Virus record (IMG/VR): IMGVR_UViG_3300013093_003863
Location: 1 to 64,000 of that record
Source: a virus
DNA: 64,000 bases
Direction: 5' to 3' (one strand)
The position numbers were made by a program, and so were the translations under genes. The notes under the pieces are model-generated. The model was not told the origin of the DNA. It searched no databases and saw only the letters and a list, made by a program, of their open reading frames with translations. This document shows, piece after piece, positions 8,995 through 36,661 of the stretch. Each line of letters opens with the position of its first letter. Within the stretch, counting starts at the first letter, position 1.

Positions 8995-9333
8995 TTATTT
9001 AATTAAGTCAAATTCCTGTTTCACATTGTGAGCTTTGACGTTGTCCATAAATTTAAGTAGGAACACACTGGCAGTTGAAGCATCATCACCATTGAAGTTT
9101 ATTTTAACATAACCAGTACCGTCTTGTCTATAGTAACTGGGTTTAGCCTTACCATATTGCACAGTTTTGCGTTTTACAAGATCAGATACTCTTACGGCAC
9201 CATAACCGGGTCCTGGTACTTCGGCAACAGTACCGCCAATCATGCTGAACCATTCGCACATTTCATCCGTGATAGCGTCTACATCTATCCATATACTGTA
9301 ATTGAGTCGACATCCTGGTGGTAATTGTATCAT
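8995..9333 (-). CDS. hypothetical phage protein
   Basis: 112-aa ORF coupled to upstream gene. Confidence 0.7.
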   Translation of the reverse strand: MIQLPPGCRLNYSIWIDVDAITDEMCEWFSMIGGTVAEVPGPGYGAVRVSDLVKRKTVQYGKAKPSYYRQDGTGYVKINFNGDDASTASVFLLKFMDNVKAHNVKQEFDLIK

Positions 9334-10607: not shown

Positions 10608-10635
10608 AGGTGCTCCTGTAGCTATTGATATCCTA

Positions 10636-10664
10636 ATTATAGCATTCAAGCCATTTCATGTCAA
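10636..10664 (-). promoter_or_regulatory. consensus sigma70 promoter
   Basis: TTGACA-17nt-(TGc)TATAAT. Confidence 0.85.
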
Positions 10665-10665
10665 A

Positions 10666-19847: not shown

Positions 19848-19876
19848 ATTGTAACAGATGTATTTAGATTTGTCAA
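19848..19876 (-). promoter_or_regulatory. sigma70-type promoter with nested late TAAATA
   Basis: TTGACA-17nt-TACAAT; TAAATA at 19861-19866 inside the spacer. Confidence 0.7.
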
Positions 19877-20880
19877 TTTGTTTTTATAAATTTCTTTAAA
19901 AACGGTGAAATTGTCACGTGTGATTTTTCGGCCACCAAAGCCAACTGTTGGCACATGGTCGAATGCATTGGATGTGAAGCACGGCTAACGTCCTGACTGT
20001 CAAAGTTGTCAAAAGTTCCCCAATTGTCTAGTTTGGTGTATTCGCCCGTAAAACCGTAGCGTTGGCACAGATCAGCAAACGGCACAATACTGGACACATT
20101 CATTGCCGACACCACAAACAACAGAGTGACTTGAGCATTACGGGGTCGGTTGTTGCGTAACCATTCTAAATTTTCCAACAATGCATCAAACTTTCCGGGT
20201 CTACGAACCACCTCGTATACCGATTCAGATCCGGCGTCGACACTGATATGAAACTCGCTGATGTGTTCAAGTATGCTTGATGTTGGCAACAGTTTTTTCA
20301 TTAACAAACCATTTGTGTGTAGCTTGATGGTTTGATGGTTTTTGGGTTGCCAATTCAACAACAACGGACGCATGATTGCACTGGCCAAGGGATCGCCATT
20401 GCCGCTCATGACAATATGCACTGGTTCTGTGAATTGATTTACAAGATCGATCAAATGCATTACCTTGGCCAATCTAGTGTGGTATAGCGGGCCCGAGGTG
20501 TGGTTAATGGACTGCCTACGACAACTAGGGCACGATAAGTTGCAACTTTCGTCGATATTGATGCCAATTTGGTATCGATTCATAACATGATCGGCATTGA
20601 TAATGCCACAATGTTGTACAGCACAATAGGTATAACTGCGATCCAGTATTGTTTGTTGTAACTTGATGGCAATAGGATTGGTCCATACGTCTTGCAAACG
20701 ATCAAAGTCGGTAATATTGCCCACACTGACTGGAAGATGTGCTTCGCATTGGCAAACATAACAGTCACCTTCAAGATCGATGTTGACCACTCGGAACGGT
20801 TGATCACAGTGATTGTTGATAGGCGTGGGCCAGTCCTGTCCACGCGGATAGTTGGCAAATATTATGGGGTTATACTGCAT
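19873..20880 (-). CDS. radical SAM protein with N-terminal SPASM/twitch-like Cys cluster
   Basis: CDQPF..CYVCQC; SCNLSCPSC; GNGDPL; HTNG; SVDAG. Confidence 0.85.
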   Translation of the reverse strand: MQYNPIIFANYPRGQDWPTPINNHCDQPFRVVNIDLEGDCYVCQCEAHLPVSVGNITDFDRLQDVWTNPIAIKLQQTILDRSYTYCAVQHCGIINADHVMNRYQIGINIDESCNLSCPSCRRQSINHTSGPLYHTRLAKVMHLIDLVNQFTEPVHIVMSGNGDPLASAIMRPLLLNWQPKNHQTIKLHTNGLLMKKLLPTSSILEHISEFHISVDAGSESVYEVVRRPGKFDALLENLEWLRNNRPRNAQVTLLFVVSAMNVSSIVPFADLCQRYGFTGEYTKLDNWGTFDNFDSQDVSRASHPMHSTMCQQLALVAEKSHVTISPFLKKFIKTN

Positions 20881-21814
20881 TGTTTCTTGCTACAATTTTG
20901 CCCATGGCCTGATGTGCCTTGATTGTGTGCAACACCCCGGGACGTTGAATCTCTAACCAGCTGATGTTTGGGGCAAAGAAAAAATCTTCAACAATTTCAA
21001 ATCCCACGCTTTCGCAGGTGGGAATCAATAGACTTTTTGGCATGTAGGTTTGAGCAAAGTTTTCGGCCATGCCGGCACCGGCCGGAGTATCGCCGTCGTT
21101 GTAACTGAACAAAAACACTCCTCCAGGTCGCATAACAGTTTGCAGTTGCTTCAGCACCTGTGTCACAGTATCTAAACTAACGTAATTGAAATGTCCCCAA
21201 CTAAACACAAATGCAAATTGATTTTTTGGCAATGCACCGAGATCGTAATTTTTTAACGGATACTTTCTTAATCGATTTTGATATGGTGCAGGAAATCGAC
21301 TGTTGGTGCTGTCTAAAAATTCAGGAAATGGATCCATGATATAAAGCGGATCGGCAGCTACCAAAAACTGTGTCCATTCGCCGTCTCTACATCCTATTTC
21401 CAAAGCCGGATAACGCCAATTGGTGTGCAGCAGTATTCGTTGCTTGACAGTTTGCTCGACATCTTCACGTAGTGCAATTTTGCGATTATTACGCACATTG
21501 TCAATTCCGCCAGTGCGTTCTTCCAGTTCGTAACTGTCGCTGAACAATCGATGTGCAATATCGGTTATCTTGTTTGTTAAATGAGTCAGTGTGACTTTGT
21601 TTTGCTCCAAGGGCAATTGAGTTTGAGTCAAGATATTGTCGTAGTGTGCAATTAAAGTATCGATATACTTTTCGTATTCGGGATCGATACTGTTGACCTG
21701 TAATCGAATATTGCCTAGTTTGGTTTTTAATTCGTTAATGGATGCAACCACCGGGCCAATATCCAGTTGTTGGCTCAACGACTGTTTTAACGAAACTAGA
21801 TCGTGCAACGACAT
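20870..21814 (-). CDS. coiled coil plus class I SAM methyltransferase
   Basis: ALEIGCRDG motif I, MRPGGVFLF; start reassigned to MSLHDL. Confidence 0.7.
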   Translation of the reverse strand: MSLHDLVSLKQSLSQQLDIGPVVASINELKTKLGNIRLQVNSIDPEYEKYIDTLIAHYDNILTQTQLPLEQNKVTLTHLTNKITDIAHRLFSDSYELEERTGGIDNVRNNRKIALREDVEQTVKQRILLHTNWRYPALEIGCRDGEWTQFLVAADPLYIMDPFPEFLDSTNSRFPAPYQNRLRKYPLKNYDLGALPKNQFAFVFSWGHFNYVSLDTVTQVLKQLQTVMRPGGVFLFSYNDGDTPAGAGMAENFAQTYMPKSLLIPTCESVGFEIVEDFFFAPNISWLEIQRPGVLHTIKAHQAMGKIVARNNAV

Positions 21815-21815
21815 C

Positions 21816-24479
21816 TTATTCCCAACTAAACAAACTGTCAAATGTGCTACTGATATCGGTATTGGCTTCAATATCCCAGCCTAATACTCCCAACAAATTT
21901 TCTACCTTTTGATCCACAATAGTACTTTCCATAAGTCCGTTGTCAAACGGCAAGTCTTTGAACCACTGTGGAATATGTAACACGTCTGTGGGATAACCAA
22001 CACTGGTATAGCCTAAAGGATTGTCTTTTAATTTGCACACAATGGTTTTCATACCATCAACAATAGCACTACTATAGTTATCTCCGTGCATACGCTTTAG
22101 ATTATTCCAGTTCATTGCGGCTCTAACGTGTCCGGGCATGTTGGCTTTGCCTAGTCGTTGTTCTTCGGCAGTGTACTTGGTTAGGTTGTTGACACGTTTG
22201 GGAGTGCCCTTTTCCCAAGCCGGACGATCTTTAAAAGCAATCTTGAACTCTTTTACCTTTTCAATAACGGTGTCACGTTCGGCTCCAGTTAGCACATCCA
22301 TCAAGATCTCGCTCAAAAAGTTTTGCACCACCTTGGGAGTGTCACTTCGCTTCAAGTCCAAGCCCATGGCTTTTACTTTACCTGGGCTACCATGTGTGTC
22401 TAAACGTTTGCCTTCTTTGTCTACAATAAGAACTGCATAGCGTTTCTTTTTAATAAACAAGCCTTTACTAGCAACAAGTTCTCGACCGCCCTTGATGATA
22501 GCTCCCATTTCTCTAGGACAATGAAATGCACGTTCCATAAATGCCGGGAATGATTCGTTTACCGAGTCAGCAATGGTATCATATAACTGTATAGCGATGT
22601 CTTTGTTCCATTCCATTTTACCAGCTTCAACTTCTTCACGCACCATGGGCCAAGCCGAGAAGTAAACCGAGTCAGTGTCACCGTATATGATTGCCTCGCC
22701 CACGTGATCGTACCGGCCAGTTATTGCTTCATTGACATGGCCATCCATGTGGTGTGCAATTCCGCGTCCGGTAAGTGTCGTTGATTGTCCAATACGCTTG
22801 TCAAAAAAACGACAACCAGGGTTGAGTAAAGCACCATATAAACTATTAAGATTAATTTTCTTAACCAGTTGTCGTTTATCCCAATAAGCCTTATCTTCAT
22901 CTGTTTCTGCTTCTTTAAGTTTGGCCTGCATTTGTTTGCGTTCGGCATACCAACGTTCTAGCAACGCTGGTATAATACCTTTACGGTCATACTTGAATAT
23001 GGTACCATTAGCACTCAGCGTCCAAGGTTGATTACTGTTAAAAACAATATCCCATACCTGTTTGGCACTGTGTACGGTTTCTTTTCCATCTTCCCAGTCT
23101 ATTGTGATCTCGGTACCCACTTCACCTGCCATGACAGCAGTATATTCTAAACTGCCAAACAGGCCCTCCCATGCATCTGCAAAGTTACCACCGTTCTCAC
23201 GCATCTTGTTTGCAATGTAGAGATCGGTCATTACGGGCCGGAGTTGCCCGATGATGGTTTCCGGTCCCATGTTAAGGGCTCGAATAGCCGAGGGATAGAG
23301 ACTGTTGATGTCGATTGCCCCGATGTATTCGTGCATGCCTCTTTTGGGATAAGCAACATAGGCACCTGCGGCTTGCGTTTGTTCTTTGTCATCACGACCC
23401 TTTCTGTTAGGAACTACCATACCACGTTGATGAGCATCGTTAATAATCGCCTGCTCGGTCACTGCCACTGCACCCATTGTAGTGGCCAGCAATACTGTGT
23501 TATCATGTGCCAATTCGTTTGCAAGATCCAAGAAGCGCAGTTTCTTGTCAAATTTTGCAATCAGCATTGTGTCCTGTCGGTTATACTCAATAAACTTGGG
23601 AAAGTCCATGTTGTACAATTGATCCAGTGTTCCTTCATAAGGCGTTTTGCTTTCGCCCAGTTCGTATTCGGCAATAGCATCCAAGCTATAACTGTGTCGT
23701 TCTTCGTATGTGTACTTGCGGTACAGTTGCATATAGTCCATATGCACACGACCAATCAAGTCAAATGTAATATTTTCTGCACCAAAGCGTTCAAATGTAC
23801 GCTCTTTAGGCATTTGATTCCACAAACACAAACGTCTTAGGTCATCTCGGCTCAGAGCTTTCACAATACGTCCCACAGTATAGGGAATATCAAAGCCTTC
23901 ACTGTTCCACCCACTTAGTATGTCGGCGTCTTGTATAATATCCAAGAATGTATTGATCATGTCTTCTTCACGTTCAAAAAGAAAACAATTGTCAAACTTA
24001 CTGCATATCTCTTTGGCAGTATCCCAACTTATTGATTTTGGAGGAACTACTAGAGTAACTAATTTATCCAACCAATCTAGGTATAAAGAGAACGCGGTAA
24101 TTTTATTAAACGGATCTTTTGTTGGGGCATAACCTTTAGTGGGATCAAAATCAACCTCAATGTCAAAAAATGCAGTTTGTAACTTAGGCGAGTTCGCTCC
24201 CAAGTAATTTGATTCAAGACAACGAAATATGGGATTGATATCACTTTCCCATAGTCTTTTACCTGAATTTATTTTTAGTTCTTTATGATATTCTTTGCTA
24301 TTCCTAGTATGGAATCGCGAAACCGGAGTATCAAAGATGGTGCGGTGTCGGCCTTTGGGATCGTCGTAATAAAAAACATACTCGGCAGCATATTCTTTAT
24401 AAACTCGTTCACCATCAACACGTTCAACAACGTGTATTCGATCTTTTGCTCGGTCAAAGAGAGCGTCTACATAACTCAT
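21816..24479 (-). CDS. family B DNA polymerase (T4 gp43-like)
   Basis: ExoI FDIEV, ExoII GWNSEGFD, DINSLYPS, KINLNSLYG, YGDTDS, KKRY. Confidence 0.96.
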   Translation of the reverse strand: MSYVDALFDRAKDRIHVVERVDGERVYKEYAAEYVFYYDDPKGRHRTIFDTPVSRFHTRNSKEYHKELKINSGKRLWESDINPIFRCLESNYLGANSPKLQTAFFDIEVDFDPTKGYAPTKDPFNKITAFSLYLDWLDKLVTLVVPPKSISWDTAKEICSKFDNCFLFEREEDMINTFLDIIQDADILSGWNSEGFDIPYTVGRIVKALSRDDLRRLCLWNQMPKERTFERFGAENITFDLIGRVHMDYMQLYRKYTYEERHSYSLDAIAEYELGESKTPYEGTLDQLYNMDFPKFIEYNRQDTMLIAKFDKKLRFLDLANELAHDNTVLLATTMGAVAVTEQAIINDAHQRGMVVPNRKGRDDKEQTQAAGAYVAYPKRGMHEYIGAIDINSLYPSAIRALNMGPETIIGQLRPVMTDLYIANKMRENGGNFADAWEGLFGSLEYTAVMAGEVGTEITIDWEDGKETVHSAKQVWDIVFNSNQPWTLSANGTIFKYDRKGIIPALLERWYAERKQMQAKLKEAETDEDKAYWDKRQLVKKINLNSLYGALLNPGCRFFDKRIGQSTTLTGRGIAHHMDGHVNEAITGRYDHVGEAIIYGDTDSVYFSAWPMVREEVEAGKMEWNKDIAIQLYDTIADSVNESFPAFMERAFHCPREMGAIIKGGRELVASKGLFIKKKRYAVLIVDKEGKRLDTHGSPGKVKAMGLDLKRSDTPKVVQNFLSEILMDVLTGAERDTVIEKVKEFKIAFKDRPAWEKGTPKRVNNLTKYTAEEQRLGKANMPGHVRAAMNWNNLKRMHGDNYSSAIVDGMKTIVCKLKDNPLGYTSVGYPTDVLHIPQWFKDLPFDNGLMESTIVDQKVENLLGVLGWDIEANTDISSTFDSLFSWE

Positions 24480-25832: not shown

Positions 25833-26095
25833 AGTGTTTTACCAACTGTTTCCAAAATTGTGTTCAATTCGTCATGATCTCTATTGGTTTCACCTAAACG
25901 TGCTTTGTGTGCAATTTTGATTGCCTTCTTTAGCGTGGCCGGTTTGATTTCTAGCTCTTCACCAATTGCCTTGATTGTTTCATTAAGCCCAGTGTTCAAG
26001 TCTTCTACTTCTTGCATTACTTGGCATCCCTCATTTATAAGTTGAGTCAATTTAATTTTTGCATCACCATTAAACGTTCTGTTGTAATCGGACAT
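25829..26095 (-). CDS. small dsDNA-binding protein (T4 DsbA/GapR-like)
   Basis: 88-aa helical protein EELEIKPATLKKAIKIAHK; AGGAG SD. Confidence 0.6.
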   Translation of the reverse strand: MSDYNRTFNGDAKIKLTQLINEGCQVMQEVEDLNTGLNETIKAIGEELEIKPATLKKAIKIAHKARLGETNRDHDELNTILETVGKTL

Positions 26096-26114
26096 TTGTT
26101 TCTCCTAAAATTGT

Positions 26115-26143
26115 ATTATACGGGAGATGTTGTAGAAATGCAA
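26115..26143 (-). promoter_or_regulatory. sigma70-type promoter
   Basis: TTGCAT-17nt-TATAAT. Confidence 0.75.
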
Positions 26144-26149
26144 TAGTAG

Positions 26150-26263
26150 AATGCTCACTTTGTACAGAATCTGGCGTAACTCATGTACTGGGCAGCAGCC
26201 GCCCACTTGACGCCTGGGCTTGCGCCCTAACCGTTGCGACAACGGAACCTAAGGTAGGTGTCT
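26150..26263 (-). ncRNA. candidate multi-stem structured RNA overlapping the ACP stop codon
   Basis: GACACCU/AGGCGUC closing CCGUUG/CAACGG and GGGC-GCAA-GCCC; UGGGC/GCCCA; GUACA/UGUAC; possible loop UGCU to 3' AGCA pseudoknot. Confidence 0.6.
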
Positions 26264-26476
26264 GTTGACCAAATCCAATACTTCTTGTAATGTGCTTACT
26301 GCGATATCATCATTGGGGATTGTGATTTTATATTCGTCTTCGAGTCTAAACACCAACTCCATTCGAGCTAGACTGTCTATACCCAAACTGTCCAAAGTGG
26401 TGGATAAAGTCCAATTGGTGGCATCAAGATCTTGGTCCTGGGCTATAAAATCAAACAATTGTTGTGGTGTTATCAT
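26249..26476 (-). CDS. acyl carrier protein
   Basis: LDSLGIDSLARMELVFRLEDEYKITI phosphopantetheine Ser motif; 75 aa from ATG 26476. Confidence 0.85.
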   Translation of the reverse strand: MITPQQLFDFIAQDQDLDATNWTLSTTLDSLGIDSLARMELVFRLEDEYKITIPNDDIAVSTLQEVLDLVNRHLP

Positions 26477-26483
26477 ATAAATA
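26476..26483 (+). promoter_or_regulatory. T4-type late promoter
   Basis: exact TATAAATA, 4 nt upstream of a closed RNA stem. Confidence 0.6.
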
Positions 26484-26487
26484 CTTA

Positions 26488-26597
26488 GTGCCGTTGCGAT
26501 ACGGACCGATAAAGATTTGAAGAACCTGAGGATTTTCCGTGTCTCTCCTCTGGGCAACAACGAATTGGCAGACGAGCTTCATTAATTATCACGGCAC
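26488..26597 (+). ncRNA. candidate 110-nt small RNA
   Basis: terminal stem GUGCCGU/ACGGCAC, nested GAUAA/UUAUC, UGAAG/CUUCA, GAGGA/UCCUC; fills the whole intergenic gap. Confidence 0.6.
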
Positions 26598-26600
26598 GCT

Positions 26601-29600
26601 TTATGCACCACGCCACTGTGCATACAATCCAGTTACGTACATCATATCGTATTCACCATAATAGAGTTTGTTTAATTCGGTTTTTACTGCTGGAGTCAAT
26701 GATCCGGTACCGGGCACCACGTCAAAAGCAAAAATCATATTGCCATCTTCGTCGTCTCCAAGATAGTCACCGCCCAATCGTCCCATTACAATATCAATAT
26801 TTTTATCAACTATCGCGTTTCTTCTTTTTGCCCTTGCAAGATCATCGGCATTTTTTTGTTTGTGTAACTTTTTATATTTAAGATCACTATTTTCCAATTC
26901 TACGTAGCCGCGAACTTCAACCCCGGGAATTTGTGCTAGACTCATCCAATTACGTTTACCGCCGGGTGTTTGTTGTGATCCAGCAAGCAAGGTTATTTTT
27001 AATATGCTTAGTGCAACACCATACAGGGCTTTGGCAATGCCCTGTCCTCGATAATCTTCATCCACTGTGACGGTACTCACTTGGTATGCATTATTGATAG
27101 GAAAACCTACCCGCATCAATTTCAATTGTCCGACGGCTTCTTGCCCTGATTGATCTAATATTCTTATTTCTAAAAAACGCCCAGTGTCAATGGTGGCATA
27201 ATTTAATCCACTGCCACCCGGTAACGGTTTTATATTCTTTTGGCTTACTGCCCTGGGATCGGTATACCTAGGATGTTTTAACACATCTTTACCACCTGTA
27301 TATTGATATGATTGTAAATTTTCAATTTCGGTTATCTCGTCTTCGCTTATGGCACCGATACCTATACCAATACCGGCACTAGCCAATGTATATTTTACAG
27401 TGTCGATCCAGTTTTTGCCGTTGACTCGACTCACCACAGTAGGTATAACAGTATTCAATACTGCCTGTAACAACATGTTGGTCTGTGCTGGAGAAAGTTG
27501 TACATTTTGCGCTATATGCAACAAGCCACCAGTTAATAGTGTACCAATGGTTGTTATTACACCACCTTGTATATAAGGATTTGTTTTGGCTTTGACTAGA
27601 ATTTCTTTAACTTGTCCACGAACTGAAGGATCGGCTTTGGCTAATAATGCTTGTGCTTGTTCAACGTAATTGTCAACAGGTTGTCGAGCGACTTCGCCAA
27701 CCTCATCTTGGTAAAAATCTATTACAGCATCAGTAACTTGATTAGCAACTTCGGATTCAAATAAACTTTCATCTACGGCACGTGCATACTCTGTAGCATG
27801 TCCACTGCGGTCTACATGCCAAGCATAAAATCTAATATCAGGATATTCTTGGTGTAACTTTAAAAATGATTCCAAATTGGGCTTTGAATCATCGTACATA
27901 ATTGCTTTGTTATAAGGATATCCTGTTAACAATCTACGTATAATACGTGCTTTCTTTTCATCAATTGGCACAGGATCTTGATCATTTCCTGCACGGTACA
28001 CATGTACCTTGTTCATATCTATGTGCCATTGTTCAAATGTTTTTAAGAATATTTCTTTATTGTTAAAGTCACTTCTAGCAGTAACCATTACAACTTTATT
28101 ACCGGTTGCAATATCATTTTTCAATTGCTCAATCATGGGTGCAATTGGTTGTGCATGTTTGAAAAAGTCTTCGGCATCTCTAAATGCACCAAAGTCAAAT
28201 TCTTCGCCGGGTTGCTTTTTGTACAATGTAAACTCGTGACTGTCTAGGGTCTTGACAGTTTTACCATTGCGAACTACACCAACTCGAGTATTAGTAGTTA
28301 CTAGCGTATCGTCAATGTCAAATATAACTAATTTCTTTTCGCCAACAGCTTCGTCAACGCCTTCTTTGGCATGTTTCTTTTTGCCAGCTTTCATATTAGC
28401 CAACCAGTGTGCCATACGAGCTTTCTCTCCCGTACTATGTTTGGCCGTTTTACGTAGGCTACTTACACTTGCTTTAGTATTAACACCACTGCGTTTAGCC
28501 AATCCTTTGCGTCCAGGATGCTTACCATCGGCAAAGTTTTCGCTCATGATCCAAGTGTCGGGAATTTGTTTATACTTTTCTACCCAGAGATCATGCATTT
28601 TTTGTCCGCTTATACCATGACTCTTGGCTACACGTGTCATGATCTTGTCTATGATATCGTATACTTTGTCGTCATTGTCGTCGACTGCTTGTATCTGTTT
28701 TTTATGTGCTTCCAATGCGGCACGTAATTCTTCTACGGCATCTTTATCTTTGTCATGATCCATGTTTTCGTCTACTTTGTTTTGACTTTGAACATAGTCA
28801 ATAGCGGATTGTACTATGACTTGATCTATCCCGAGACAGTTTTTGCGATCGCTATAGCCCTGTTTATCCATTGCGTGGAGATAGGGATATATTCCTTGGA
28901 TTTTTGGGAATAGTCCCATTTGCCAGGCCAGCTCAAAACTTATTTCTCCCCTTGGACTATACCATTCGGGATCATGACGCCATTTAATTCCAAAATTGGG
29001 TTTGACACCGTTGGGCCCTTTCACTGGTGGACCGTTATAAAATACTCCGGCACTGTTAAATTCAAGACGTGTATTATTGAAGGTCATCATGTATTCGCCA
29101 TCACCTTTAGACCACATGCGATAATTCATTTTATTTAACAGTGCCACAACTGCGGGATCTTGTGAGGGATCTTGTGCGGGTGCTTCTTTAAGAGGTGGAG
29201 CCGGTCTAAATTCAAACATGTCGGCTTCAACGTCCGAATACTTGCTGACAAGTTTTGCTATAACAGGATCCATTGCCTTGTAGGGAATGTTGTGTGCTAT
29301 TTGAATTGGTTTAGCGTTGGGTCGGCGTAGATTTAGATAAAGATTGATTCTGTCAGGATGTATGATTTTACCTTCGTCGACATCATTTTCCCAGACATTT
29401 TGTTCGGGACGATGTTTAGCCCAAAAGCCGGCGCCAGCATCAGTTTGTTGCCCACTGCGGCGGATTTTATAGCCTTTGCTTTTCACATAGTCATACATGG
29501 TTTGAGCAATGCCTTGCCCACGATAGCGTTCTTCAACTTCTAGGTCTTGTGGTAGTAATTCGTCACCATCAAAAGCAAATAACACATGACCCAACTCACG

Positions 29601-30101
29601 ACCGTTGCTTGTAGCCGTAACATACATTACTTGATTATCGTAATCGTCATCATCAACGTATTCATCGTCTTTTTGTATTTCAATAGAAATATCTATACCG
29701 TTAAATGCTTCTTCAGTTATGCCACTTTTTTTTAAACCAAAGTATTCGGGATTGGCCTCGGCAAAGTCACGCATGACAACACCGGCATTGGCATTGGCTT
29801 CGTTTTCTTGTGGAGTACCAGTTTCGCCTGCAGCTGCAGTCAACTCTCCGGCTAAGTTTTGTTTATGATGTGTTAGTTCGTGTGCAAGAGTGCGTAGCAC
29901 ATCTATGGGATTGCGATTGGCAATGACAACATTTAGTGTTTTTGTTTCTGGGTTATACTGCCCAAAAGTTGTATCAACAGGAGCATCTAGCAATGTGATT
30001 TCAGGAAGTTCTTTAATTCCCAATTGCTCAGCGATCCAAGGAATGTACTTTTGTACAAATGCCCGGTTGTCGCTTTCTTTAGAATACTCTTTTGCTCGCA
30101 T
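26601..30101 (-). CDS. 1166-aa multidomain polyprotein (HExxH peptidase-like, GNAT, HAD phosphatase, second GNAT), probable internal head protein
   Basis: LAHELTHH; VEERYRGQGIA; FDIDDTL..VTAR..YDDS; VDEDYRGQGIA; modules separated by [LIVM]xE sites; late promoter. Confidence 0.75.
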   Translation of the reverse strand: MRAKEYSKESDNRAFVQKYIPWIAEQLGIKELPEITLLDAPVDTTFGQYNPETKTLNVVIANRNPIDVLRTLAHELTHHKQNLAGELTAAAGETGTPQENEANANAGVVMRDFAEANPEYFGLKKSGITEEAFNGIDISIEIQKDDEYVDDDDYDNQVMYVTATSNGRELGHVLFAFDGDELLPQDLEVEERYRGQGIAQTMYDYVKSKGYKIRRSGQQTDAGAGFWAKHRPEQNVWENDVDEGKIIHPDRINLYLNLRRPNAKPIQIAHNIPYKAMDPVIAKLVSKYSDVEADMFEFRPAPPLKEAPAQDPSQDPAVVALLNKMNYRMWSKGDGEYMMTFNNTRLEFNSAGVFYNGPPVKGPNGVKPNFGIKWRHDPEWYSPRGEISFELAWQMGLFPKIQGIYPYLHAMDKQGYSDRKNCLGIDQVIVQSAIDYVQSQNKVDENMDHDKDKDAVEELRAALEAHKKQIQAVDDNDDKVYDIIDKIMTRVAKSHGISGQKMHDLWVEKYKQIPDTWIMSENFADGKHPGRKGLAKRSGVNTKASVSSLRKTAKHSTGEKARMAHWLANMKAGKKKHAKEGVDEAVGEKKLVIFDIDDTLVTTNTRVGVVRNGKTVKTLDSHEFTLYKKQPGEEFDFGAFRDAEDFFKHAQPIAPMIEQLKNDIATGNKVVMVTARSDFNNKEIFLKTFEQWHIDMNKVHVYRAGNDQDPVPIDEKKARIIRRLLTGYPYNKAIMYDDSKPNLESFLKLHQEYPDIRFYAWHVDRSGHATEYARAVDESLFESEVANQVTDAVIDFYQDEVGEVARQPVDNYVEQAQALLAKADPSVRGQVKEILVKAKTNPYIQGGVITTIGTLLTGGLLHIAQNVQLSPAQTNMLLQAVLNTVIPTVVSRVNGKNWIDTVKYTLASAGIGIGIGAISEDEITEIENLQSYQYTGGKDVLKHPRYTDPRAVSQKNIKPLPGGSGLNYATIDTGRFLEIRILDQSGQEAVGQLKLMRVGFPINNAYQVSTVTVDEDYRGQGIAKALYGVALSILKITLLAGSQQTPGGKRNWMSLAQIPGVEVRGYVELENSDLKYKKLHKQKNADDLARAKRRNAIVDKNIDIVMGRLGGDYLGDDEDGNMIFAFDVVPGTGSLTPAVKTELNKLYYGEYDMMYVTGLYAQWRGA

Positions 30102-30107
30102 AATGAG

Positions 30108-30113
30108 TATTTA
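30108..30113 (-). promoter_or_regulatory. late promoter TAAATA
   Basis: CTAAATA 6 nt upstream of ATG 30101; same motif precedes many genes in the window. Confidence 0.65.
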
Positions 30114-31307
30114 GTGGAACATCAAGAAGCTATTCATAACATCACGTCGATTAGCTGCTCTGTCGCCGTGTCCGCTGGCAAATACTACCACATTCCATTT
30201 ACGTACTGGTCCTACTGGAATTTTCAACATTTCATCGTAGCTGATAATAGTATTGGGACGTATAGGTTGACTACTTTCCGCACCAAACGTTTTAATTAAA
30301 CGTTGTTTAAATTCTTCCCAAGCTTCGGGTGATTTAAATTGTGTACGCCCTTCGGCATCCTTGATGGCCTTGCCTTTGGGATTGGTTACAATCAAGTCTC
30401 TAAACATATCTTTAGGCACTTCAAATGCTTGTTTAACTGTACCGCCACCGGCAATGTGTTGCTTGATTGGTTTGACTTCGCGACTTTTAGCTCCGCCACT
30501 GTGCTGAATTTCAAAGTTGTCGGGCAAGTTGGCCAATGCTGCCATGGCCATCTTGGTATAAGCATAAAAATCCACATCCGGATAGTCACGTGCTACTTGT
30601 AATGCCATGTCTAAATATTCTTTACTGAAGAAGTCACCAGCATCATGCCAACGTACTACAAGTTTCATTCCTTTAGCAGCAAGTCCGCTTTTGATTTTAT
30701 CAATGTTGGCTCGTAACATAGCAAACCACTCTTCGGGATGATTAATCAAAAAGTTAAGACTACGAGCAGCACTCATGCTACTGGCCGGGAACATTACATA
30801 GCCGCCTTTTCGTGCATAACAAAACAGTTGACAAGCACCGGCTCCGGGACAGGTTACAATTTCCACAAAGTCACCGGTCGCTTCGTCCATGATAATTCCG
30901 GCCAGCGCAGGTAGTGTTAGGTCCAATACTACCTCGCCCTCAGTGGCACTTTTTAACATTTTGGCGTTGGGACTGTCCAGTATGCTTTTGGGTCTAGCCA
31001 TTATTTGTCTAGCCAAGTCATCTAAATCCCATTCATTGACCGGATTGCCTTCATCATCCACTTGATCATCTTTGGTAATGGCCTTGATATTACTGCCATG
31101 TATTATACCAGCAAAACGATCTTGTTTGGTTTGAGTGTCGGTCTTGATTCGTTCAGCGCGACTTTGCATTGTGCCACGATCAAGTCTACGATGCGGAGCA
31201 TTTAGTCCAATGGCTTCATCAACTTCGCCGCCGATGTGTAGGGGCTTGACTGTGAATCCACCTAGTTTGGTGCCCTTGGATTCGATTAAAAATTCACTTG
31301 CTCTCAT
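30111..31307 (-). CDS. GP88-family (radical-SAM-like) protein with capsid-targeting-like N-terminus
   Basis: TCPGAGACQLFCYARKG, VRWHDAGDFFS, FYAYTK; starts MRASEFLIE. Confidence 0.7.
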   Translation of the reverse strand: MRASEFLIESKGTKLGGFTVKPLHIGGEVDEAIGLNAPHRRLDRGTMQSRAERIKTDTQTKQDRFAGIIHGSNIKAITKDDQVDDEGNPVNEWDLDDLARQIMARPKSILDSPNAKMLKSATEGEVVLDLTLPALAGIIMDEATGDFVEIVTCPGAGACQLFCYARKGGYVMFPASSMSAARSLNFLINHPEEWFAMLRANIDKIKSGLAAKGMKLVVRWHDAGDFFSKEYLDMALQVARDYPDVDFYAYTKMAMAALANLPDNFEIQHSGGAKSREVKPIKQHIAGGGTVKQAFEVPKDMFRDLIVTNPKGKAIKDAEGRTQFKSPEAWEEFKQRLIKTFGAESSQPIRPNTIISYDEMLKIPVGPVRKWNVVVFASGHGDRAANRRDVMNSFLMFH

Positions 31308-31741
31308 TTTGCTGTTGCTCGTAGCATCCATGCATGTTTACGGAACGCATCAATACGTTCGGCCAAAAAGTTACTGAATCCATGTTCGCCAGCCGATTCG
31401 GCCAAGTCATAGACAACTTTGATTATGCCTATCATGTGTTCGGCATCTTCTAGTAATACGAGCACCATTTCTTCTGGTGGAAGAATTTGTGTTTCGTCTG
31501 CAATTTCGGTTAATGCACTGAAGCGTGTGTAACTGGCTGGAACATATCCACCACTTTTGCGAATGTTTTCGGCAAAATCGTCAATGCTACCGTAAACTTC
31601 CTCGTATATTTTTTGAAATAGTTTGTGGTATTGATAAAATGCAGCACCTTCTACGTTCCAGTGAAAGTTGTGACTTTTTAAATAAAAACTAAAACTGCTG
31701 GCAAAAGCAATTTTAGAGGAGTTAATTAATTCTTCGTTCAT
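31304..31741 (-). CDS. dps: Dps / mini-ferritin
   Basis: HNFHWNVEG..YHKLFQKIYEE..DDFAENIR..G; HAWML. Confidence 0.9.
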   Translation of the reverse strand: MNEELINSSKIAFASSFSFYLKSHNFHWNVEGAAFYQYHKLFQKIYEEVYGSIDDFAENIRKSGGYVPASYTRFSALTEIADETQILPPEEMVLVLLEDAEHMIGIIKVVYDLAESAGEHGFSNFLAERIDAFRKHAWMLRATAK

Positions 31742-31747
31742 AATGTA

Positions 31748-31753
31748 TATTTA
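31748..31753 (-). promoter_or_regulatory. late promoter TAAATA
   Basis: CTAAATA 6 nt upstream of dps ATG. Confidence 0.65.
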
Positions 31754-34195
31754 GTCAAAGTATCCGGCACGTCGCATTTCGGCCAAACGCACTGCCATTA
31801 AACGTTGTTGGCGACGTTCAGCAATGCCCATGGGCTTTTGATATTGGCTGGTCATTGGAGTAGGCCCGGACAATTTAGAAACATTTACACGTTGATTGCC
31901 GGGCGGAACTGGACTTGATGAATCATCGGGACCGGCTCCCACTGCAGGATCTGCAGCATTGTACTCGTTCAATTCAATTCCGTAGTGTTTGCATACTTTT
32001 AACAATTCGTCGTATGTGAGTAATTCTAAATGACTTACATCCACTTTGTGCTTTAACTGGTCAATCAAGGACTGTCTACTGGGACCATCTTCGTCAAGAC
32101 CGGGTGTTCCGGGAATAGCACTTGTACTATCGTTTGGAACCATATGGCCATCCGCATATTCCATTACTTGCCCTTGGCCATGCCAAGCATCACCTTCACC
32201 GTGCCATGAATCTTCGTCGACGTCGTTTTCGTTCATGCCCATGGCATTGTCGATTCTGGTTTCGGCTTTGGTTTTATAGTAGTATTTGGGTCCGCCTTCT
32301 TTGGGATCAACAGCTCGCCACATGAACAATTCTTTGCCGTCTACGTTCATCAACTTGGCAGCACCCGGCACTGACATTTCTCTTGGGGCATGATGAAACG
32401 AATAGCCTTTATAGTCAATGTCTTGGTTGCCCATCATGCCAGCAACACCGGCTGCACCCAATGTAAATGCACCCAGTGCGTTTGCAAATTTGCCTTCTTC
32501 TACACCTTCAACTGTTGGTGGTTTGCCAGTAATGTACATTTTCCACTCTTTTCCAGTTTGTGCAGTTTTACGAGCACACATCTCTCGCATCTTTTGTTTT
32601 TGTTCAAACCATGCTTTACTGTTTTCGGGACCGGCACCGGGAAAAATCTTCCAAGTACGCCCATTGATCTGTATTTCAATGTTGGCAGTGCCCATTGGCT
32701 CGTCCTGACCTTTTTTGTGGCCTAATACTTGTTTACCAAATTTGGCAGTGTGTGGTTCAAATTCTGCTTCAGCTACACCTTGCTCTTTAATTTTTAAATT
32801 TTTAAATTGATTCATGCTACTGCCAAACATATTGTCAATTGCAGCTCTTGTTCTTTCTTGGTCTTGCCGTTTTTGCTCGCGTCTATCTGCGGTGGCTTGT
32901 TTTTTGGTGCCCGTTTTAATAGTCGTCATCATGTGGTCAAAAGGCTTATCGCCTGTGGTCTCAGCCACATCTCGCTCGTATCCGGTTTCTTCAGCTGCAC
33001 CGCCAGCGTCGTGTGCCAATTGTTGTATAGCCGCCCAATACTTACGTGGAGCCGTCATGTCATCGCCATGCCAGCTGATCGCTTTGCCGAATTTGGCCAT
33101 TACTTGATTGTAGGCCTTTTCACTGTCAACGCCAAATGTTACGGTATCATATGATCCTTCCGCCACATCCTGTTGTTTAAGAACAAACACACGTGCAGGA
33201 CTAATAGGTGATTGACCTGCTCGTTGTGATTTTACTAAGACTTGCCAACTTCCAGTCATCATTTCTGGTTCACTAACTACTACACCTCGGTCCCAATACT
33301 GTTTATCATCTCTTGGAGGATTTGGTAGCATGTCTTTTGGGCCTAACCATAACATTACATGAGTTCCTGGTTGTAGTCTTGATTGTGACCCTTCCGCTAC
33401 GCCCTGTTGTTCTCTAACTGCAGGATTGTCAATCTGTTGTGCCACTGCAGTCAAGCCTTCGTTGCCGTTGGTGATCTTTTTGTACATCCATGCTTCTAGT
33501 GGTACGCCCTGTTTAACAGATCGGTAAATCTTTTTTGCAGCCTCGGCTATGGCCCGTAGTTCGCCCAGTGCCATACCGTCCAGTTGTTCATCTTCCATGG
33601 CATAGGCTTCTGTGCCTCCGGTCATCATGGCTTCTTCTACACTCTCACCTAAATCACTGCCTTGAAATTCTATGTGGTCATATGGACTCCAGGGTTGGCC
33701 TGTACGACTGTCTACCTCTTCACCGTTCTCGCCATCATCAGCATATTCATAGTAATCATGACTGGCCATGTCTACACCATCAAAATCTGCGTTGTAGTCA
33801 ATGTAGTATTTTCTTACCTTGCCATCAGGACAATGTACGCCACGACTCAATATTTTTTCCACTGCCACTTGTGCATCAATAACCTTCTTCATTGGGCTAC
33901 CACCTTTTCGGGCTATGTCTGCCAATAGGCTCAGATCCTGTGTGTACCAAGCCTGTGCCAAAGCATGTAGATAACCCATACCATTGTCACCACCGCCGTA
34001 TTCGGGACTGGGTGCAAATTCTTTTAAAGGTTTATTTTTAACACAGTTATTGACCTTGACCTCTTTGCCATAAGTGGGACTGGCCTTTGATCCTTCTTTG
34101 TGCCAACCGGTGCGGCAGTGTTCACGATTGCGTTGTGCTTGAGTGCGTTTGGCTTCTGCAATGCTCATGGCATCTACAATATCATTTAAAAACAT
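31751..34195 (-). CDS. 814-aa modular polyprotein with repeated (Q/E)GVAE linkers
   Basis: QQGVAEG, QQDVAEG, RDVAET, EQGVAEA and EGVEEG separate short domains. Confidence 0.75.
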   Translation of the reverse strand: MFLNDIVDAMSIAEAKRTQAQRNREHCRTGWHKEGSKASPTYGKEVKVNNCVKNKPLKEFAPSPEYGGGDNGMGYLHALAQAWYTQDLSLLADIARKGGSPMKKVIDAQVAVEKILSRGVHCPDGKVRKYYIDYNADFDGVDMASHDYYEYADDGENGEEVDSRTGQPWSPYDHIEFQGSDLGESVEEAMMTGGTEAYAMEDEQLDGMALGELRAIAEAAKKIYRSVKQGVPLEAWMYKKITNGNEGLTAVAQQIDNPAVREQQGVAEGSQSRLQPGTHVMLWLGPKDMLPNPPRDDKQYWDRGVVVSEPEMMTGSWQVLVKSQRAGQSPISPARVFVLKQQDVAEGSYDTVTFGVDSEKAYNQVMAKFGKAISWHGDDMTAPRKYWAAIQQLAHDAGGAAEETGYERDVAETTGDKPFDHMMTTIKTGTKKQATADRREQKRQDQERTRAAIDNMFGSSMNQFKNLKIKEQGVAEAEFEPHTAKFGKQVLGHKKGQDEPMGTANIEIQINGRTWKIFPGAGPENSKAWFEQKQKMREMCARKTAQTGKEWKMYITGKPPTVEGVEEGKFANALGAFTLGAAGVAGMMGNQDIDYKGYSFHHAPREMSVPGAAKLMNVDGKELFMWRAVDPKEGGPKYYYKTKAETRIDNAMGMNENDVDEDSWHGEGDAWHGQGQVMEYADGHMVPNDSTSAIPGTPGLDEDGPSRQSLIDQLKHKVDVSHLELLTYDELLKVCKHYGIELNEYNAADPAVGAGPDDSSSPVPPGNQRVNVSKLSGPTPMTSQYQKPMGIAERRQQRLMAVRLAEMRRAGYFD
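33156..33409 (-). repeat. imperfect 20-bp direct repeats flanking a 234-bp in-frame cassette
   Basis: CAACAGGGCGTAGCGGAAGG (33390-33409) and CAACAGGATGTGGCGGAAGG (33156-33175); related copies at 35659-35678 and 32766-32784. Confidence 0.6.
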
Positions 34196-35106
34196 TATTT
34201 GACTCCTGCGGCAGCATTTTGTTTTTGTGTTGCCTGTTTAACTGCTGTAGCAATTTGTTGTGATGCTTGTGGATCTAGTAGTGCCGGCCCAAGTTCATCA
34301 GTTACAGTGGCAGCAAACTTTTTAGCTTGTGGGCTCATGCCTTTTCCTGTTGCAGGATCAGCATTGGGAGTGTTTAAAAATTCAGCTCCACCGTTTGCCG
34401 CAGTAGGAACACCACCTACGGGCTTTTTACCAGTGGCTTGAGAAATTTTTTGTAAACCGGTTGTTATTGTTTGTTTTTGCTTTGCTGCCACCTGTGGATT
34501 TTGTTGTTGTCCACCTTGGGCTGGATTACTGGCTCCTGCTTCTTGAACGTAGGCCTTCCACTCGCGTGCAATAGCCTCTTCTATGCTTTCTTCGCAACCA
34601 CCAACACCTTGTCCGGGACGAGGTGGGTTCTTGTCGGTGCCCTTCCAGTAACCACCAAATTTGGCACCACGTGGATTATGTTCAGCCGCCGCCATACTGT
34701 CTTCGTTCTTGGGACGGATGTGATGTTTTTTCATGTTGATGGCCTTGGCAGCCTGTATCTGTGCCGGACTAGCAGCTTCTGCTTGTGTCTGGGCCTGTTG
34801 ATTTTGTGCAACTTGTTGGCTGGGTGGAGTTGTTGCCGGTGGTTTGAATGCAGTTGAGCCTATTTCTTTTTGCACTGTGTATGTTTTACCATCACTAGCC
34901 TTCATTTGCGTAAATGGTTGCAGAGCAAGTTGTTTGGCTACGTCTTGAGGATTGAACCCGTATTTTTTTGCAGCCGTATCCACATCCAAGTAATCCAACT
35001 GCTTGCCAGTTTGTGGATCGGATATGGCCACTGCCTTCATGCCCTGCGGAGCCATTTCATCTAACCGTTTGAATGTGTTTATGATATTGCTAAAATGCTG
35101 ATCCAT
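34195..35106 (-). CDS. Q/A-rich hypothetical protein, probable internal head protein
   Basis: RLDE, SIEE and VQE sites; GGYWKGTD module; in late block. Confidence 0.7.
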   Translation of the reverse strand: MDQHFSNIINTFKRLDEMAPQGMKAVAISDPQTGKQLDYLDVDTAAKKYGFNPQDVAKQLALQPFTQMKASDGKTYTVQKEIGSTAFKPPATTPPSQQVAQNQQAQTQAEAASPAQIQAAKAINMKKHHIRPKNEDSMAAAEHNPRGAKFGGYWKGTDKNPPRPGQGVGGCEESIEEAIAREWKAYVQEAGASNPAQGGQQQNPQVAAKQKQTITTGLQKISQATGKKPVGGVPTAANGGAEFLNTPNADPATGKGMSPQAKKFAATVTDELGPALLDPQASQQIATAVKQATQKQNAAAGVK

Positions 35107-36350
35107 TATTTTTTGGCCTTTGGTGGTTTGATATCGTGCTTGACGTTGCTTTGTCTATTGGAATAGCCTTGCAATCGTTTTTGCACTTGTGCCTTGGTCA
35201 TGCCACCAGCACCCAATTCAGTAACAACGGTAGCAACTGAACTGCTTACAGTGGCACCAGAATCTTCACTTAGTCGATTTAATTCTTGTTTGAGTTGTTG
35301 TCTTAACGACTTTGTTTCGTTAACACTCTCGCCTGCATGTTTAAAATATTGTACTTGACGTTCACGTTTTTCTGCACCGGCTCTAGTGGGATACTTGCCC
35401 AAATTCTTGTCGCCATGTTTGCTCTTTAACTCGTAACCGCCTTTGACTTTAACAATGTGCTCCTCCACACCTTTCTTTAAAAAGTTAGGTATCTCTCCTG
35501 GTGCTTTACTTTTGTTCACGGGCTTTTGTGGTATATTATATTTAGGACCATCAAGTCGAGTGGCAAGTGGACCAAAGTGTTTACTGGCTTTGGGATCGAC
35601 TTCTATACGTTTGCGATTGGGATAACTCAGTGATGTCTTTTCGTCGGCCCAACGTTGGCCTTCCGCCATACCTTGTGGTTGTTGTGCTGACTGATATAAT
35701 TCGGGGTACGCTTTTCTAATATCAATAATAGCATCTTTTACAGTTTTGTTAGTTCTGTCGCCAACTTCTTGGCCTAGTACCTGTCTATTTTGTTTTACAT
35801 ACGTTAAAATATTTCTAACAGTATCAGCATCACGGCCCACTAACTCAAGTGCGTGTGCTCCGTCTCCGTGTGGATATAGTGCTTTTGACCAATTATGCCA
35901 GTCTGATTCTACAGGATTGTAGCCCTCTTCTATGCCTTCCCAATCACTTGGATCGTGTTCGCCATAATAGTAGTGCTCCATGGCCTCTTGACGGCTCCAG
36001 TGATATTTTTGCATTAGATGTTGTATTTTTCTTTCTGCTTCGTCTTCGTCATCAAGCATTTCATTAACAGTTTGTTCAGCATTGCCAATATTGAACGCAG
36101 GCAATCCGTCTTCGTGTTCTTTGTCCATTTCGTGTTGGCTCAATGCATAGTCCATGACAGTGACCATCATTTCTTTAATAGCTCCGAGTTTTTCCTCGAC
36201 CCATTCAGGTAAATGTTCGTTGTCGCTTAACGCACCTTCTAAGTGACTGGCTACACGTACAATGGTGTGCAAGGTGTTTTTGGCCATAGTTGCATCAGTG
36301 CCATCACTGGGTGCATCGGTAAATTCTTGTAAAAATTCTGTGGGTTTCAT
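35106..36350 (-). CDS. 414-aa modular protein with capsid-targeting-like N-terminus
   Basis: MKPTEFLQE; VNE, GIEEG, QGMAEG, GVEE and LSE boundaries. Confidence 0.75.
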   Translation of the reverse strand: MKPTEFLQEFTDAPSDGTDATMAKNTLHTIVRVASHLEGALSDNEHLPEWVEEKLGAIKEMMVTVMDYALSQHEMDKEHEDGLPAFNIGNAEQTVNEMLDDEDEAERKIQHLMQKYHWSRQEAMEHYYYGEHDPSDWEGIEEGYNPVESDWHNWSKALYPHGDGAHALELVGRDADTVRNILTYVKQNRQVLGQEVGDRTNKTVKDAIIDIRKAYPELYQSAQQPQGMAEGQRWADEKTSLSYPNRKRIEVDPKASKHFGPLATRLDGPKYNIPQKPVNKSKAPGEIPNFLKKGVEEHIVKVKGGYELKSKHGDKNLGKYPTRAGAEKRERQVQYFKHAGESVNETKSLRQQLKQELNRLSEDSGATVSSSVATVVTELGAGGMTKAQVQKRLQGYSNRQSNVKHDIKPPKAKK

Positions 36351-36372
36351 CGTGATTCCTGAATATATTGTA

Positions 36373-36378
36373 TATTTA
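36373..36378 (-). promoter_or_regulatory. late promoter TAAATA
   Basis: CTAAATA upstream of AGGA SD and ATG 36350. Confidence 0.6.
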
Positions 36379-36381
36379 GCG

Positions 36382-36660
36382 TTAAGTAGAAAACGTTAAA
36401 TCTTGTGAATCTACAGTTTTGCTATCAACAGTTAAATTGCGAGGTCTAAATACAGTTTCAGCTCCGCAACTTTCTATACGAACTTGGTGTGTGCCGGATT
36501 CGATATCGACTTCTAAGTTTTCTTGTATGAATATTTCGTATGCGGGCCAGATCCAACTGCGTTCGGTCAATAAGTCATTGTCCACATACACACGATATGC
36601 CGGAGTACCGTGTTGTGTTGTATCACAGTAAACATCGAGCGTGATCACTGTGCGGGCCAT
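36382..36660 (-). CDS. hypothetical all-beta protein
   Basis: PAYRVYVDNDLL..GTHQVRIE, loosely like 37932-38378. Confidence 0.7.
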   Translation of the reverse strand: MARTVITLDVYCDTTQHGTPAYRVYVDNDLLTERSWIWPAYEIFIQENLEVDIESGTHQVRIESCGAETVFRPRNLTVDSKTVDSQDLTFST

Positions 36661-36661
36661 G

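Follow-up and report, generated by a model that had tools for sequence, protein, structure and literature searches.

Two neighbouring genes on the minus strand of a 64,000-nucleotide stretch of viral DNA (IMG/VR record IMGVR_UViG_3300013093_003863, positions 1 to 64,000; this whole stretch is called the window) encode mosaic proteins of 814 and 414 amino acids (aa), in which unrelated modules are separated by a short recurring peptide, Q-G-V-A-E-G or Q-G-V-A-E-A, here called the joint. The DNA of the joint, whose consensus is the 14-mer GGTGTGGCGGAAGG, is conserved at silent sites, homology between relatives breaks at it, and the relatives hold the same modules in other orders and in other genes. 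We regard the joint as probably the standard connector of head-cargo polyproteins in freshwater phages of the T4 superfamily with genomes of about 350 kb, acting both as a peptide and as DNA. A first-pass annotation, made from the letters of the window alone, had suggested that the recurrent linker is a protease site as well as a short recombination site that inserts or swaps domains in frame, in the manner of a protein-level integron.

Searching the window for the degenerate pattern CARGRYRTRGCGGAAGG with at most two mismatches returned four matches, all on the minus strand, against a mean of 0.16 in 100 shuffled controls, none of which reached four. The four copies listed in the first-pass annotation (33390-33406, 33156-33172, 35659-35675 and 32766-32782) agree with the DNA in position and letters, and in this order they read QGVAEG, QDVAEG, QGMAEG and QGVAEA in two open reading frames (ORFs). 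The two copies that it had described as bracketing a 234-bp domain, at 33390 and 33156, are indeed spaced by 234 nt or 78 codons, and an independent repeat search grouped the three long copies into one 26-nt family (33152, 33386 and 35655) with the same 234-nt spacing. Likewise, the three copies said to share GCG GAA GG all contain GCGGAAGG, an 8-mer with no other minus-strand copy in the 88.8-kb contig from which the window derives. Two of the weaker copies that had been suspected, near 32960 (32957-32971, RDVAET) and near 32500 (32492-32506, EGVEEG), are real joints because the homology of relatives ends there; for the third, KGVEEH near 35461, no evidence of a module boundary was found. One joint was missing from that list, ESVEEA at 33629-33643, and it collects 28 ends of high-scoring segment pairs (HSPs, local BLAST matches). 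The features of the two mosaic genes are as follows, with HSP ends counted within 8 aa of a joint and a slash marking a candidate cleavage position.

31751..34195, minus strand: ORF of the mosaic protein of 814 aa, a putative cargo polyprotein, with a leader, about six internal modules and a C-terminal part
34154..34195, minus strand: N-terminal leader MFLNDIVDAMSIAE/A, ending in I-A-E and resembling the T4 capsid-targeting sequence (from sequence)
33629..33643, minus strand: joint S-V-E-E-A with non-consensus DNA, AGTGTAGAAGAAGCC; 28 internal HSP ends
33389..33406, minus strand: joint Q-G-V-A-E-G, CAGGGCGTAGCGGAAGGG; 15 HSP ends; lake contigs diverge at 33388/33390
33158..33391, minus strand: module of 78 aa (residues 269-346), possibly an SH3/Tudor-like beta barrel (structural leads only)
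33155..33172, minus strand: joint Q-D-V-A-E-G, CAGGATGTGGCGGAAGGA; nine HSP ends; loose contig ends at 33151 and 33164
32960..33157, minus strand: module of residues 347-412; absent in frame from one lake contig
32957..32971, minus strand: joint D-V-A-E-T, GATGTGGCTGAGACC; 14 HSP ends; loose contig ends at 32956 and 32964
32765..32782, minus strand: joint Q-G-V-A-E-A, CAAGGTGTAGCTGAAGCA; 19 HSP ends
32492..32506, minus strand: joint G-V-E-E-G, GGTGTAGAAGAAGGC; seven HSP ends
35106..36350, minus strand: ORF of the second mosaic protein, 414 aa, with the T4-like leader MKPTEFLQE
35658..35675, minus strand: joint Q-G-M-A-E-G, CAAGGTATGGCGGAAGGC; a lake contig diverges at 35655
35922..35936, minus strand: joint-like G-I-E-E-G, a putative boundary (from sequence)

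The modular build of these proteins is most evident from their relatives. A search of 5.8 billion proteins yielded 80 relatives of the 814-aa protein, which are 455-1413 aa long and often 75-93% identical to it, each covering 8-46% of the query. BLAST against the 814-aa protein gave 97 local matches, and 93 of the 174 internal HSP ends (match ends not due to a protein terminus) fell within 8 aa of one of seven joints, where 14.4% would be expected from length alone (P = 1.6e-33). The homologs carry up to 10 joint peptides per protein, nearly always of the form [KEQ][QKEP]GVAE[GA]. Splitting 109 non-identical proteins at their joints, which were found by regular expression, produced 460 pieces, which form 233 families when matches must cover 75% of the longer partner; single linkage judged by the shorter partner, which chained 302 pieces into one family, was dropped. 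The modules are unrelated to each other and about 50-170 aa in size, in many families every member has the same number of residues (52, 67 or 105, for example), and the 814-aa protein falls into about seven pieces and its homologs into as many as 11, so that a polypeptide holds several unrelated domains. Among the 30 families with at least four members, 21 are followed by more than one partner family and 20 are preceded by more than one, and the family of the 78-aa module (family 6) with its eight members has eight downstream and seven upstream partner families. Families that bear a leader invariably come first, and some other families invariably come last.

Homolog modules include sigma-70 region 4 (Sigma70_r4, E = 3e-17), DUF6321, an RMF-like module, a DnaJ-type zinc finger and GNAT, a set consistent with host-takeover or anti-defence parts. 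An AlphaFold2 model of the 814-aa protein (56 aligned sequences) has a mean predicted local distance difference test (pLDDT) score of 57 with confident blocks at residues 1-30, 70-190, 209-255, 432-465, 611-651, 700-740 and 790-814; the six joints all fall between such blocks, where pLDDT is below 50. With the whole model as query, a fold search of the PDB gave no match at E of 0.001 or less, and one of BFVD gave a single match with a template modelling (TM) score of 0.06. The 78-aa module is poorly modelled within the full protein (pLDDT 30-36); in structural comparisons it reaches TM scores of 0.6-0.7 to SH3/Tudor-type clusters and to ESM Atlas entries for free-standing phage proteins 70-80 aa long, leads that would make it an SH3/Tudor-like beta module.

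The phage itself is an uncultured freshwater jumbo phage of the T4 superfamily with a genome of about 350 kb, as judged from the kinship of its family-B DNA polymerase (PolB), from large relatives with T4-type head genes and from the metagenome runs that contain the stretch, which are labelled freshwater or lake-water. Its source contig is viral, 88.8 kb long, 42% G+C and about 25% complete according to CheckV. PolB is 51% identical to that of Sinorhizobium phage Phosso, 44% to that of Agrobacterium phage Atu_ph07 and 73-81% to those of metagenomic contigs of 338-354 kb, and two relatives of this size encode the T4-type capsid protein Gp23 together with a Peptidase_S77 prohead protease. Neither mosaic protein has a family in Pfam, PHROGs or NCBIfam, and tblastn searches with both of them and with P0043 found no match among 50,697 deposited phage records. 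The modules seem to be common to phages outside the 350-kb clade too, because a T4-sized contig of 170 kb (G002, locus L004), rated 100% complete and with its own Gp23 and S77 protease, contains a version of the 78-aa SH3-like module that is 84% identical.

Domain content, whose fixity among orthologs the first-pass annotation had counted as evidence against shuffling, is not fixed, as G001 shows, a relative of 354 kb whose genome is nearly complete. The genes surrounding the locus stand in the same order there (ClpB, DnaJ, glycosyltransferase, cytidylyltransferase-like and Dps-like). The 814-aa gene has as its positional ortholog a gene for 705 aa with five joints; the two proteins have only N- and C-terminal parts in common, corresponding to window residues 1-59 and 656-729, and an internal window module (residues 201-276) is found in the neighbouring G001 gene with 75% identity. 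The positional ortholog of the 414-aa gene (134412-136367, 651 aa, three joints) holds a module that the window has in the 814-aa gene. The joint peptide of G001 is confined to these two adjacent genes, which contain eight of the 17 matches to a loose pattern among 431 ORFs and all eight matches to GVAE or GMAE. Modules are also found in another kind of gene: in the relatives P0039, P0044 and P0061 the cytidylyltransferase-like enzyme is fused via joints to modules that the window has in its 814-aa protein.

For analyses at the DNA level we assembled the joints of the window's contig, of G001 and of 29 fetched loci, 85 in all, with 56 unique 51-nt contexts, 49 of the joints having distinct flanks. 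Breakpoints were read from 55 unique joints with 90-nt flanks (1485 pairs), of which 47 pairs are alike only upstream of the joint, 21 only downstream and six on both flanks. In 20 of the 21 downstream-only pairs, homology starts 0-5 nt before the first joint codon, and the upstream-only pairs lose it 8-20 nt past the start of that codon in 33 of 47 cases and earlier in the other 14. In several pairs (for example in L033, L036 and L003) one flank is 98-100% identical in DNA and the opposite flank is unrelated, which points to recent exchange events.

Contigs of four lake metagenomes were compared with positions 31700-36400, as assembled data in which rare forms and circles are invisible. A contig of run X6 joins 32957 to 33157, skipping 199 letters with one letter between, so that 198 nt or 66 codons are lost in frame, precisely the module bounded by the DVAEG and DVAET joints; the shorter side of this junction is 62 letters. 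Eight of the 19 loose contig ends shown sit at joints, and their overhangs contain the joint word in reverse complement and, after it, other modules. Several other contig junctions, in which a side measured just 20-30 letters or letters were inserted (33394/32778 with seven letters between, 33388-36324 and 32797-34719), were set aside, and differences in module depth (15.9 to 224 in run X4) were left unused, as they are sums over contigs of any organism. The clustered HSP ends, the one-sided flank pairs and the X6 variant that lacks exactly one module all bear out the earlier expectation that breakpoints fall in the motif.

The conservation of the joint at silent sites was measured in 45 G[VM]AE[GA] joints with distinct flanks, with the rest of the same ORFs as background. 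The alanine codon of the joint is GCG in 38 of 45 cases as opposed to 7% elsewhere (P = 6e-37), the valine codon is GTG in 34 of 42 as opposed to 20% (P = 3e-17), and the first glycine codon is GGT in 41 of 45 as opposed to 42% (P = 5e-12); for glutamate (GAA in 40 of 45, background 78%) the difference is not significant. Genome-wide, GCG is the rarest alanine codon (6%) and GTG a minor valine codon. The exact 14-mer occurs in 22 of the 45 joints, and in a stricter set with flanks unique on both sides GCG is still used in 29 of 35. Away from joints, [VIL]-A-E tripeptides use GCG in only four of 162 cases, invariant alanine and valine columns in a conserved helical module of the same loci have mixed codons (GCG in 0-3 of 17), and three chance G-I-A-E matches in unrelated genes use GCT or GCC.

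The same preference is found across IMG/VR contigs. The exact 17-mer CAAGGTGTGGCGGAAGG, which spells valine and alanine as GTG-GCG, occurs in at least 130 stretches, whereas for two preferred-codon spellings of this peptide the numbers are 33 and 50. Codon usage would lead one to expect the reverse, with the preferred-codon spellings about tenfold ahead. In 80 fetched loci, 98 of the 99 copies of the 17-mer lie in frame in an open frame, flanked by 94 distinct upstream and 95 distinct downstream sequences of eight residues, and 88 of the 99 copies are open over 100 codons on either side, compared with 17 of 33 and 42 of 51 copies of the preferred-codon controls. Neighbouring joints that the 17-mer search had not picked have the same spelling (GCG in 33 of 40, GGT in 39 of 40). 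Synonymous positions are thus strongly over-conserved, as the first-pass annotation had anticipated. A Chi-like or genome-wide DNA signal was rejected, as all four exact 14-mers of G001 lie in one polyprotein gene and on one strand.

The amino-terminal ends of the proteins may point to the phage head. The T4 protease prefers leucine or isoleucine at P3, and a leader ending in hydrophobic-x-glutamate, as in T4-type head-internal proteins, is present three times at the locus: MKPTEFLQE in the 414-aa protein, MRASEFLIE from Met9 in a GP88-family protein and ...DAMSIAE/AKR in the 814-aa protein, the last of which also heads P0001, P0027 and P0031. The leader pattern is found in two of 132 ORFs of the contig, both in the locus, and in nine of 434 ORFs of G001, three of them in the locus. 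For comparison, the capsid-targeting sequence (CTS) of T4 is MKTYQEFIAE (PMC8442874); T4 internal proteins and Alt are loaded into the prohead by leaders of 10-20 residues that are then removed, and the prohead proteases of T4, phiKZ, 201phi2-1 and SPN3US all cut C-terminal to glutamate (PMC5694885). Because T4-type proteases cut after glutamate and these proteins carry T4-like leaders, V-A-E/G fits a protease site, with the hydrophobic residue at P3 matching the S77 cut, and we infer that it would be cut by a T4-type prohead protease, releasing head-packaged cargo. Gp23 is encoded by G001, G002 and G005, and the scaffold protein of G001 contains AIAE/A.

From the observed conservation of the DNA and the observed breakpoints we infer a mechanism of the following kind. 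The polyprotein would consist of a short T4-like capsid-targeting leader, a string of independently folding small modules, some of which resemble host-takeover parts (sigma-70 region 4, RMF-like, zinc finger, GNAT and SH3-like), and a C-terminal module. A single leader would load the whole string into the prohead, where cutting would yield separate small proteins that travel with the DNA. The 14-17 nt of GGTGTGGCGGAAGG would at the same time give each module border the same in-frame stretch of homology, through which the replication and recombination machinery of the phage could delete, duplicate or exchange modules between joints or between co-infecting relatives, and both the reading frame and the cleavage site would survive each exchange. 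The uniformity of the word may have arisen in the same way, as modules with an intact joint would stay exchangeable and spread and repeated crossovers would copy the word. More tentatively, the system may amount to a self-maintaining in-frame cassette exchange, like exon shuffling without introns, in which modules flanked by two perfect copies of the word hop between genes and co-infecting phages, possibly with the help of a nuclease, and new combinations are packaged and released as injected effectors because the word also encodes the cut site of the head protease; the word would then be kept by cassette-level selection.

Several observations weigh against head-cargo polyproteins with a cleavable and exchangeable joint. 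An S77 protease was found in seven of the 13 records searched, most misses being fragments, and neither a protease nor a capsid gene was found in the 88.8-kb contig of the window, about a quarter of a genome. Neither S77 nor Gp23 was found in G004 (locus L093; 343 kb, rated 99% complete, PolB 73% identical), which does have an exact copy of the joint word; its contig may lack the head genes, which would lie beyond its ends, or these genes may be too diverged to detect. The likely maturation site of the G001 capsid protein is M-L-A-E/N (KMLAE/N), not GVAEG, and this region aligns with the T4 gp23 site ...FLTE65/A with a gap in the alignment there. At the DNA level, the joints of the window are each one to three letters off the consensus 14-mer, of which its contig has no exact copy. 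Partner families do not differ significantly in number between consensus and non-consensus joints (median 6 versus 4, P = 0.10). The count of GVAEG (183) and GVAEA (50) among 349 joints is partly circular because joints were defined by regular expression, which does not apply to the HSP-end test. Finally, the exchange events are not independent, because many loci may share related lakes or time series.

The alternative that survives best, though we think it rather unlikely, accepts the recombination joint and takes its peptide for a flexible linker that the prohead protease leaves alone, so that the proteins act uncut or are cut by another protease, for example one of HExxH type. An HExxH region does lie next door (29712-30101, at the start of a 1166-aa protein), polyvalent phage proteins often bear a metallopeptidase of their own (PMC5512222), the glycine at P4 and the alanine at P2 could follow from the constraint on the DNA, and the lack of a detected S77 protease in G004 also speaks for it. 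However, joints with variant DNA keep hydrophobic-x-glutamate all the same (SVEEA, DLSEG, DLDES and GIEEG), and the very same proteins start with T4-like leaders that end in I/L-x-E. The HExxH region is moreover a weak protease candidate on its sequence, since all its matches are below curated cut-offs and a sequence search of the PDB found no solved relative.

How the modules are exchanged could also depend on a dedicated enzyme, either a site-specific recombinase like those of shufflons and integrons or a nuclease of the homing type with GGTGTGGCGGAAGG as its target. The word is more uniform than microhomology needs, given its exact copies in about half of the joints and in so many viral contig stretches, and homing nucleases are abundant in T4-type phages (for example segD beside gene 23 in T4). 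We nevertheless hold such an enzyme to be improbable: Pfam revealed no recombinase, integrase or homing nuclease (HNH, GIY-YIG) in the 78 ORFs of the 64-kb window of this genome of about 350 kb, and PHROGs named no recombinase or nuclease among the 28 window ORFs scanned. The word is neither palindromic nor accompanied by an attC-like inverted repeat or stem-loop, and all copies are in one orientation and inside polyprotein genes, with no separate att-like site. The integron-like part of the first-pass proposal thus finds no support as a mechanism. T4 readily recombines at microhomologies of 6-10 bp (PMC9391042), so that no special enzyme is required, and an identical in-frame word of 14-17 nt at each border would be enough for deletion, duplication and exchange; ordinary short-homology recombination would then suffice as the route of exchange.

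Quite improbable, in our judgement, is a reading of the silent-site conservation as an RNA or translation signal, such as a binding site or a ribosome pause for folding, with breakpoints coinciding through selection for domain integrity. Slower translation has been proposed as an effect of rare codons at the edges of domains, and the rare GCG and minor GTG codons of the joint would suit this idea, but the other joint codons (GGT and GAA) are common, so there is no general use of rare codons. No Rfam family was found in 26000-38000, and the flanks are wholly different, which makes a conserved RNA fold impossible. Furthermore, the stretches of 98-100% DNA identity stop within a few letters of the word, as crossovers inside it would leave them. 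Selection on the peptide only, with DNA likeness arising from codon bias, recent duplication or chance, is very improbable indeed: it accounts for the glutamate codon, but not for the enriched GCG, GTG and GGT, for the silent-site variation of conserved residues inside a module of the same loci or for the excess of the GTG-GCG spelling.

Cargo polyproteins joined in this way resemble several known systems without coinciding with any of them. The T4 internal proteins IPI, IPII, IPIII and Alt likewise have a short N-terminal leader ending in hydrophobic-x-glutamate (a T4-type S77 protease is here encoded by some relatives), and they are likewise diverse, fast-changing and probably early-acting cargo (PMC8442874, PMC3012670, PMC5694885, PMC9391042). 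In contrast, a T4 internal protein is cut once, beside its leader, whereas here one leader precedes up to about ten modules with a candidate cut site after each, and this site is in addition fixed as DNA.

Further work on the PeSL cassettes of T4-type phages was reportedly done by Comeau and colleagues in 2014. In these cassettes a short conserved DNA element, repeated at the edges of variable segments, allows modules to be shuffled through homologous recombination (Arbiol et al. 2010, PMC2839356), and the joint is likewise a conserved piece of DNA that borders exchanged segments. Yet PeSL is described as an intergenic promoter plus stem-loop that moves whole genes and forms mini-circles; the joint is an in-frame element of 14-17 nt that moves protein modules, lies inside ORFs in nearly all copies and has no inverted repeat of the kind that a terminator stem-loop implies. 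In-frame motifs between variable segments, with exchanges often within or near them, are also described for the glycine-rich motifs of T-even gp38 and for tail fibres (Trojet et al. 2011, PMC3157838, citing Tetart et al. 1996, 1998). The gp38 motifs, however, form the structural core of a single domain in fixed order, whereas the joints separate independent domains in free number and order, and the gp38 passages mention no silent-site conservation with a rare codon as seen here.

Polyvalent proteins (Iyer et al. 2017, PMC5512222), defined by 2-15 unrelated domains per phage or plasmid polypeptide in a virion or early-delivery context, likewise combine many unrelated effector-type domains and are thought to be packaged, delivered and sometimes processed. 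The mosaic proteins have the several unrelated domains, and the neighbouring 1166-aa protein (HExxH, GNAT, phosphatase) fits the description, with a delivery context that would follow from the reading favoured here. That paper contains neither 'linker' nor 'shuffl' and describes no uniform cleavable joint and no DNA conservation at domain borders. Integrons (attC and IntI) and shufflons (sfx and Rci) also have variable cassettes delimited by a repeated site, and shufflon sites, too, lie in frame inside a gene. Both depend on a recombinase and a structured site, neither of which was found in the 64-kb window, and the modules here are translated as one chain. Full-text searches of the literature yielded no published description of the joint, either for the GVAEG peptide or for jumbo-phage polyproteins and prohead protease. 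The new element is the combination: a uniform, in-frame joint fixed at the DNA level, which is also a candidate cleavage site and delimits freely re-dealt modules.

The remaining features of the window concern the neighbours of the mosaic genes and the wider gene content of the phage. The parts of the 1166-aa protein are split in G001 over separate genes of 127 and 654 aa, and ClpB and DnaJ are kept in this 354-kb relative at 78% and 65% identity.

26601..30101, minus strand: multi-enzyme protein of 1166 aa with the HExxH region, two GNAT domains, a HAD/PNK-type (polynucleotide-kinase) phosphatase and V-D-E joints
30111..31331, minus strand: GP88-family protein with the T4-CTS-like stretch MRASEFLIE/S from Met9
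36662-37903: cytidylyltransferase-like (NMNAT-type) enzyme with a C-terminal extension
40173-43303: ClpB-type disaggregase (full-length, 759 aa) and DnaJ (J and C-terminal domains)
10666-11427, minus strand: GTP cyclohydrolase I
8426-8917, minus strand: 6-pyruvoyl-tetrahydropterin synthase/QueD-like protein
6688-8211 and 4944-5843, minus strand: radical SAM proteins
53196-53750, minus strand: glutamine amidotransferase
19873-20880, 56165-57181 and 57404-58561: three more radical SAM proteins, two with SPASM domains
20870-21871 and 26249-26560: methyltransferase and acyl-carrier-like protein, beside those radical SAM genes
49167-50060 and 52214-53194: two solute-binding proteins of the TctC family (tripartite tricarboxylate transporter receptor)

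The minus-strand genes at 4944-11427 and 53196-53750 form a 7-deazaguanine/queuosine-type set, whose composition suggests that the phage modifies its own DNA bases. The other radical SAM proteins could, with the methyltransferase and the acyl-carrier-like protein, constitute a peptide- or sugar-modifying pathway. The TctC family is typical of Betaproteobacteria, and its two members in the window may hint at the host.

If cargo polyproteins are indeed built and rebuilt at the joint, a virus would be able to make new sets of multi-protein cargo without breaking reading frames, with one short sequence serving as DNA recombination joint and as protein processing site. This makes it testable how phages re-deal anti-host effectors so fast. 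The joint can also be used as a search key, since the viral contig stretches that contain the 17-mer lead to a catalogue of small proteins with precisely defined ends that are candidates for host takeover or anti-defence, and a leader combined with cleavable uniform joints could be reused for loading several proteins into T4-type capsids. For the phages themselves, such a system would provide a combinatorial and rapidly re-dealt arsenal against host defences.

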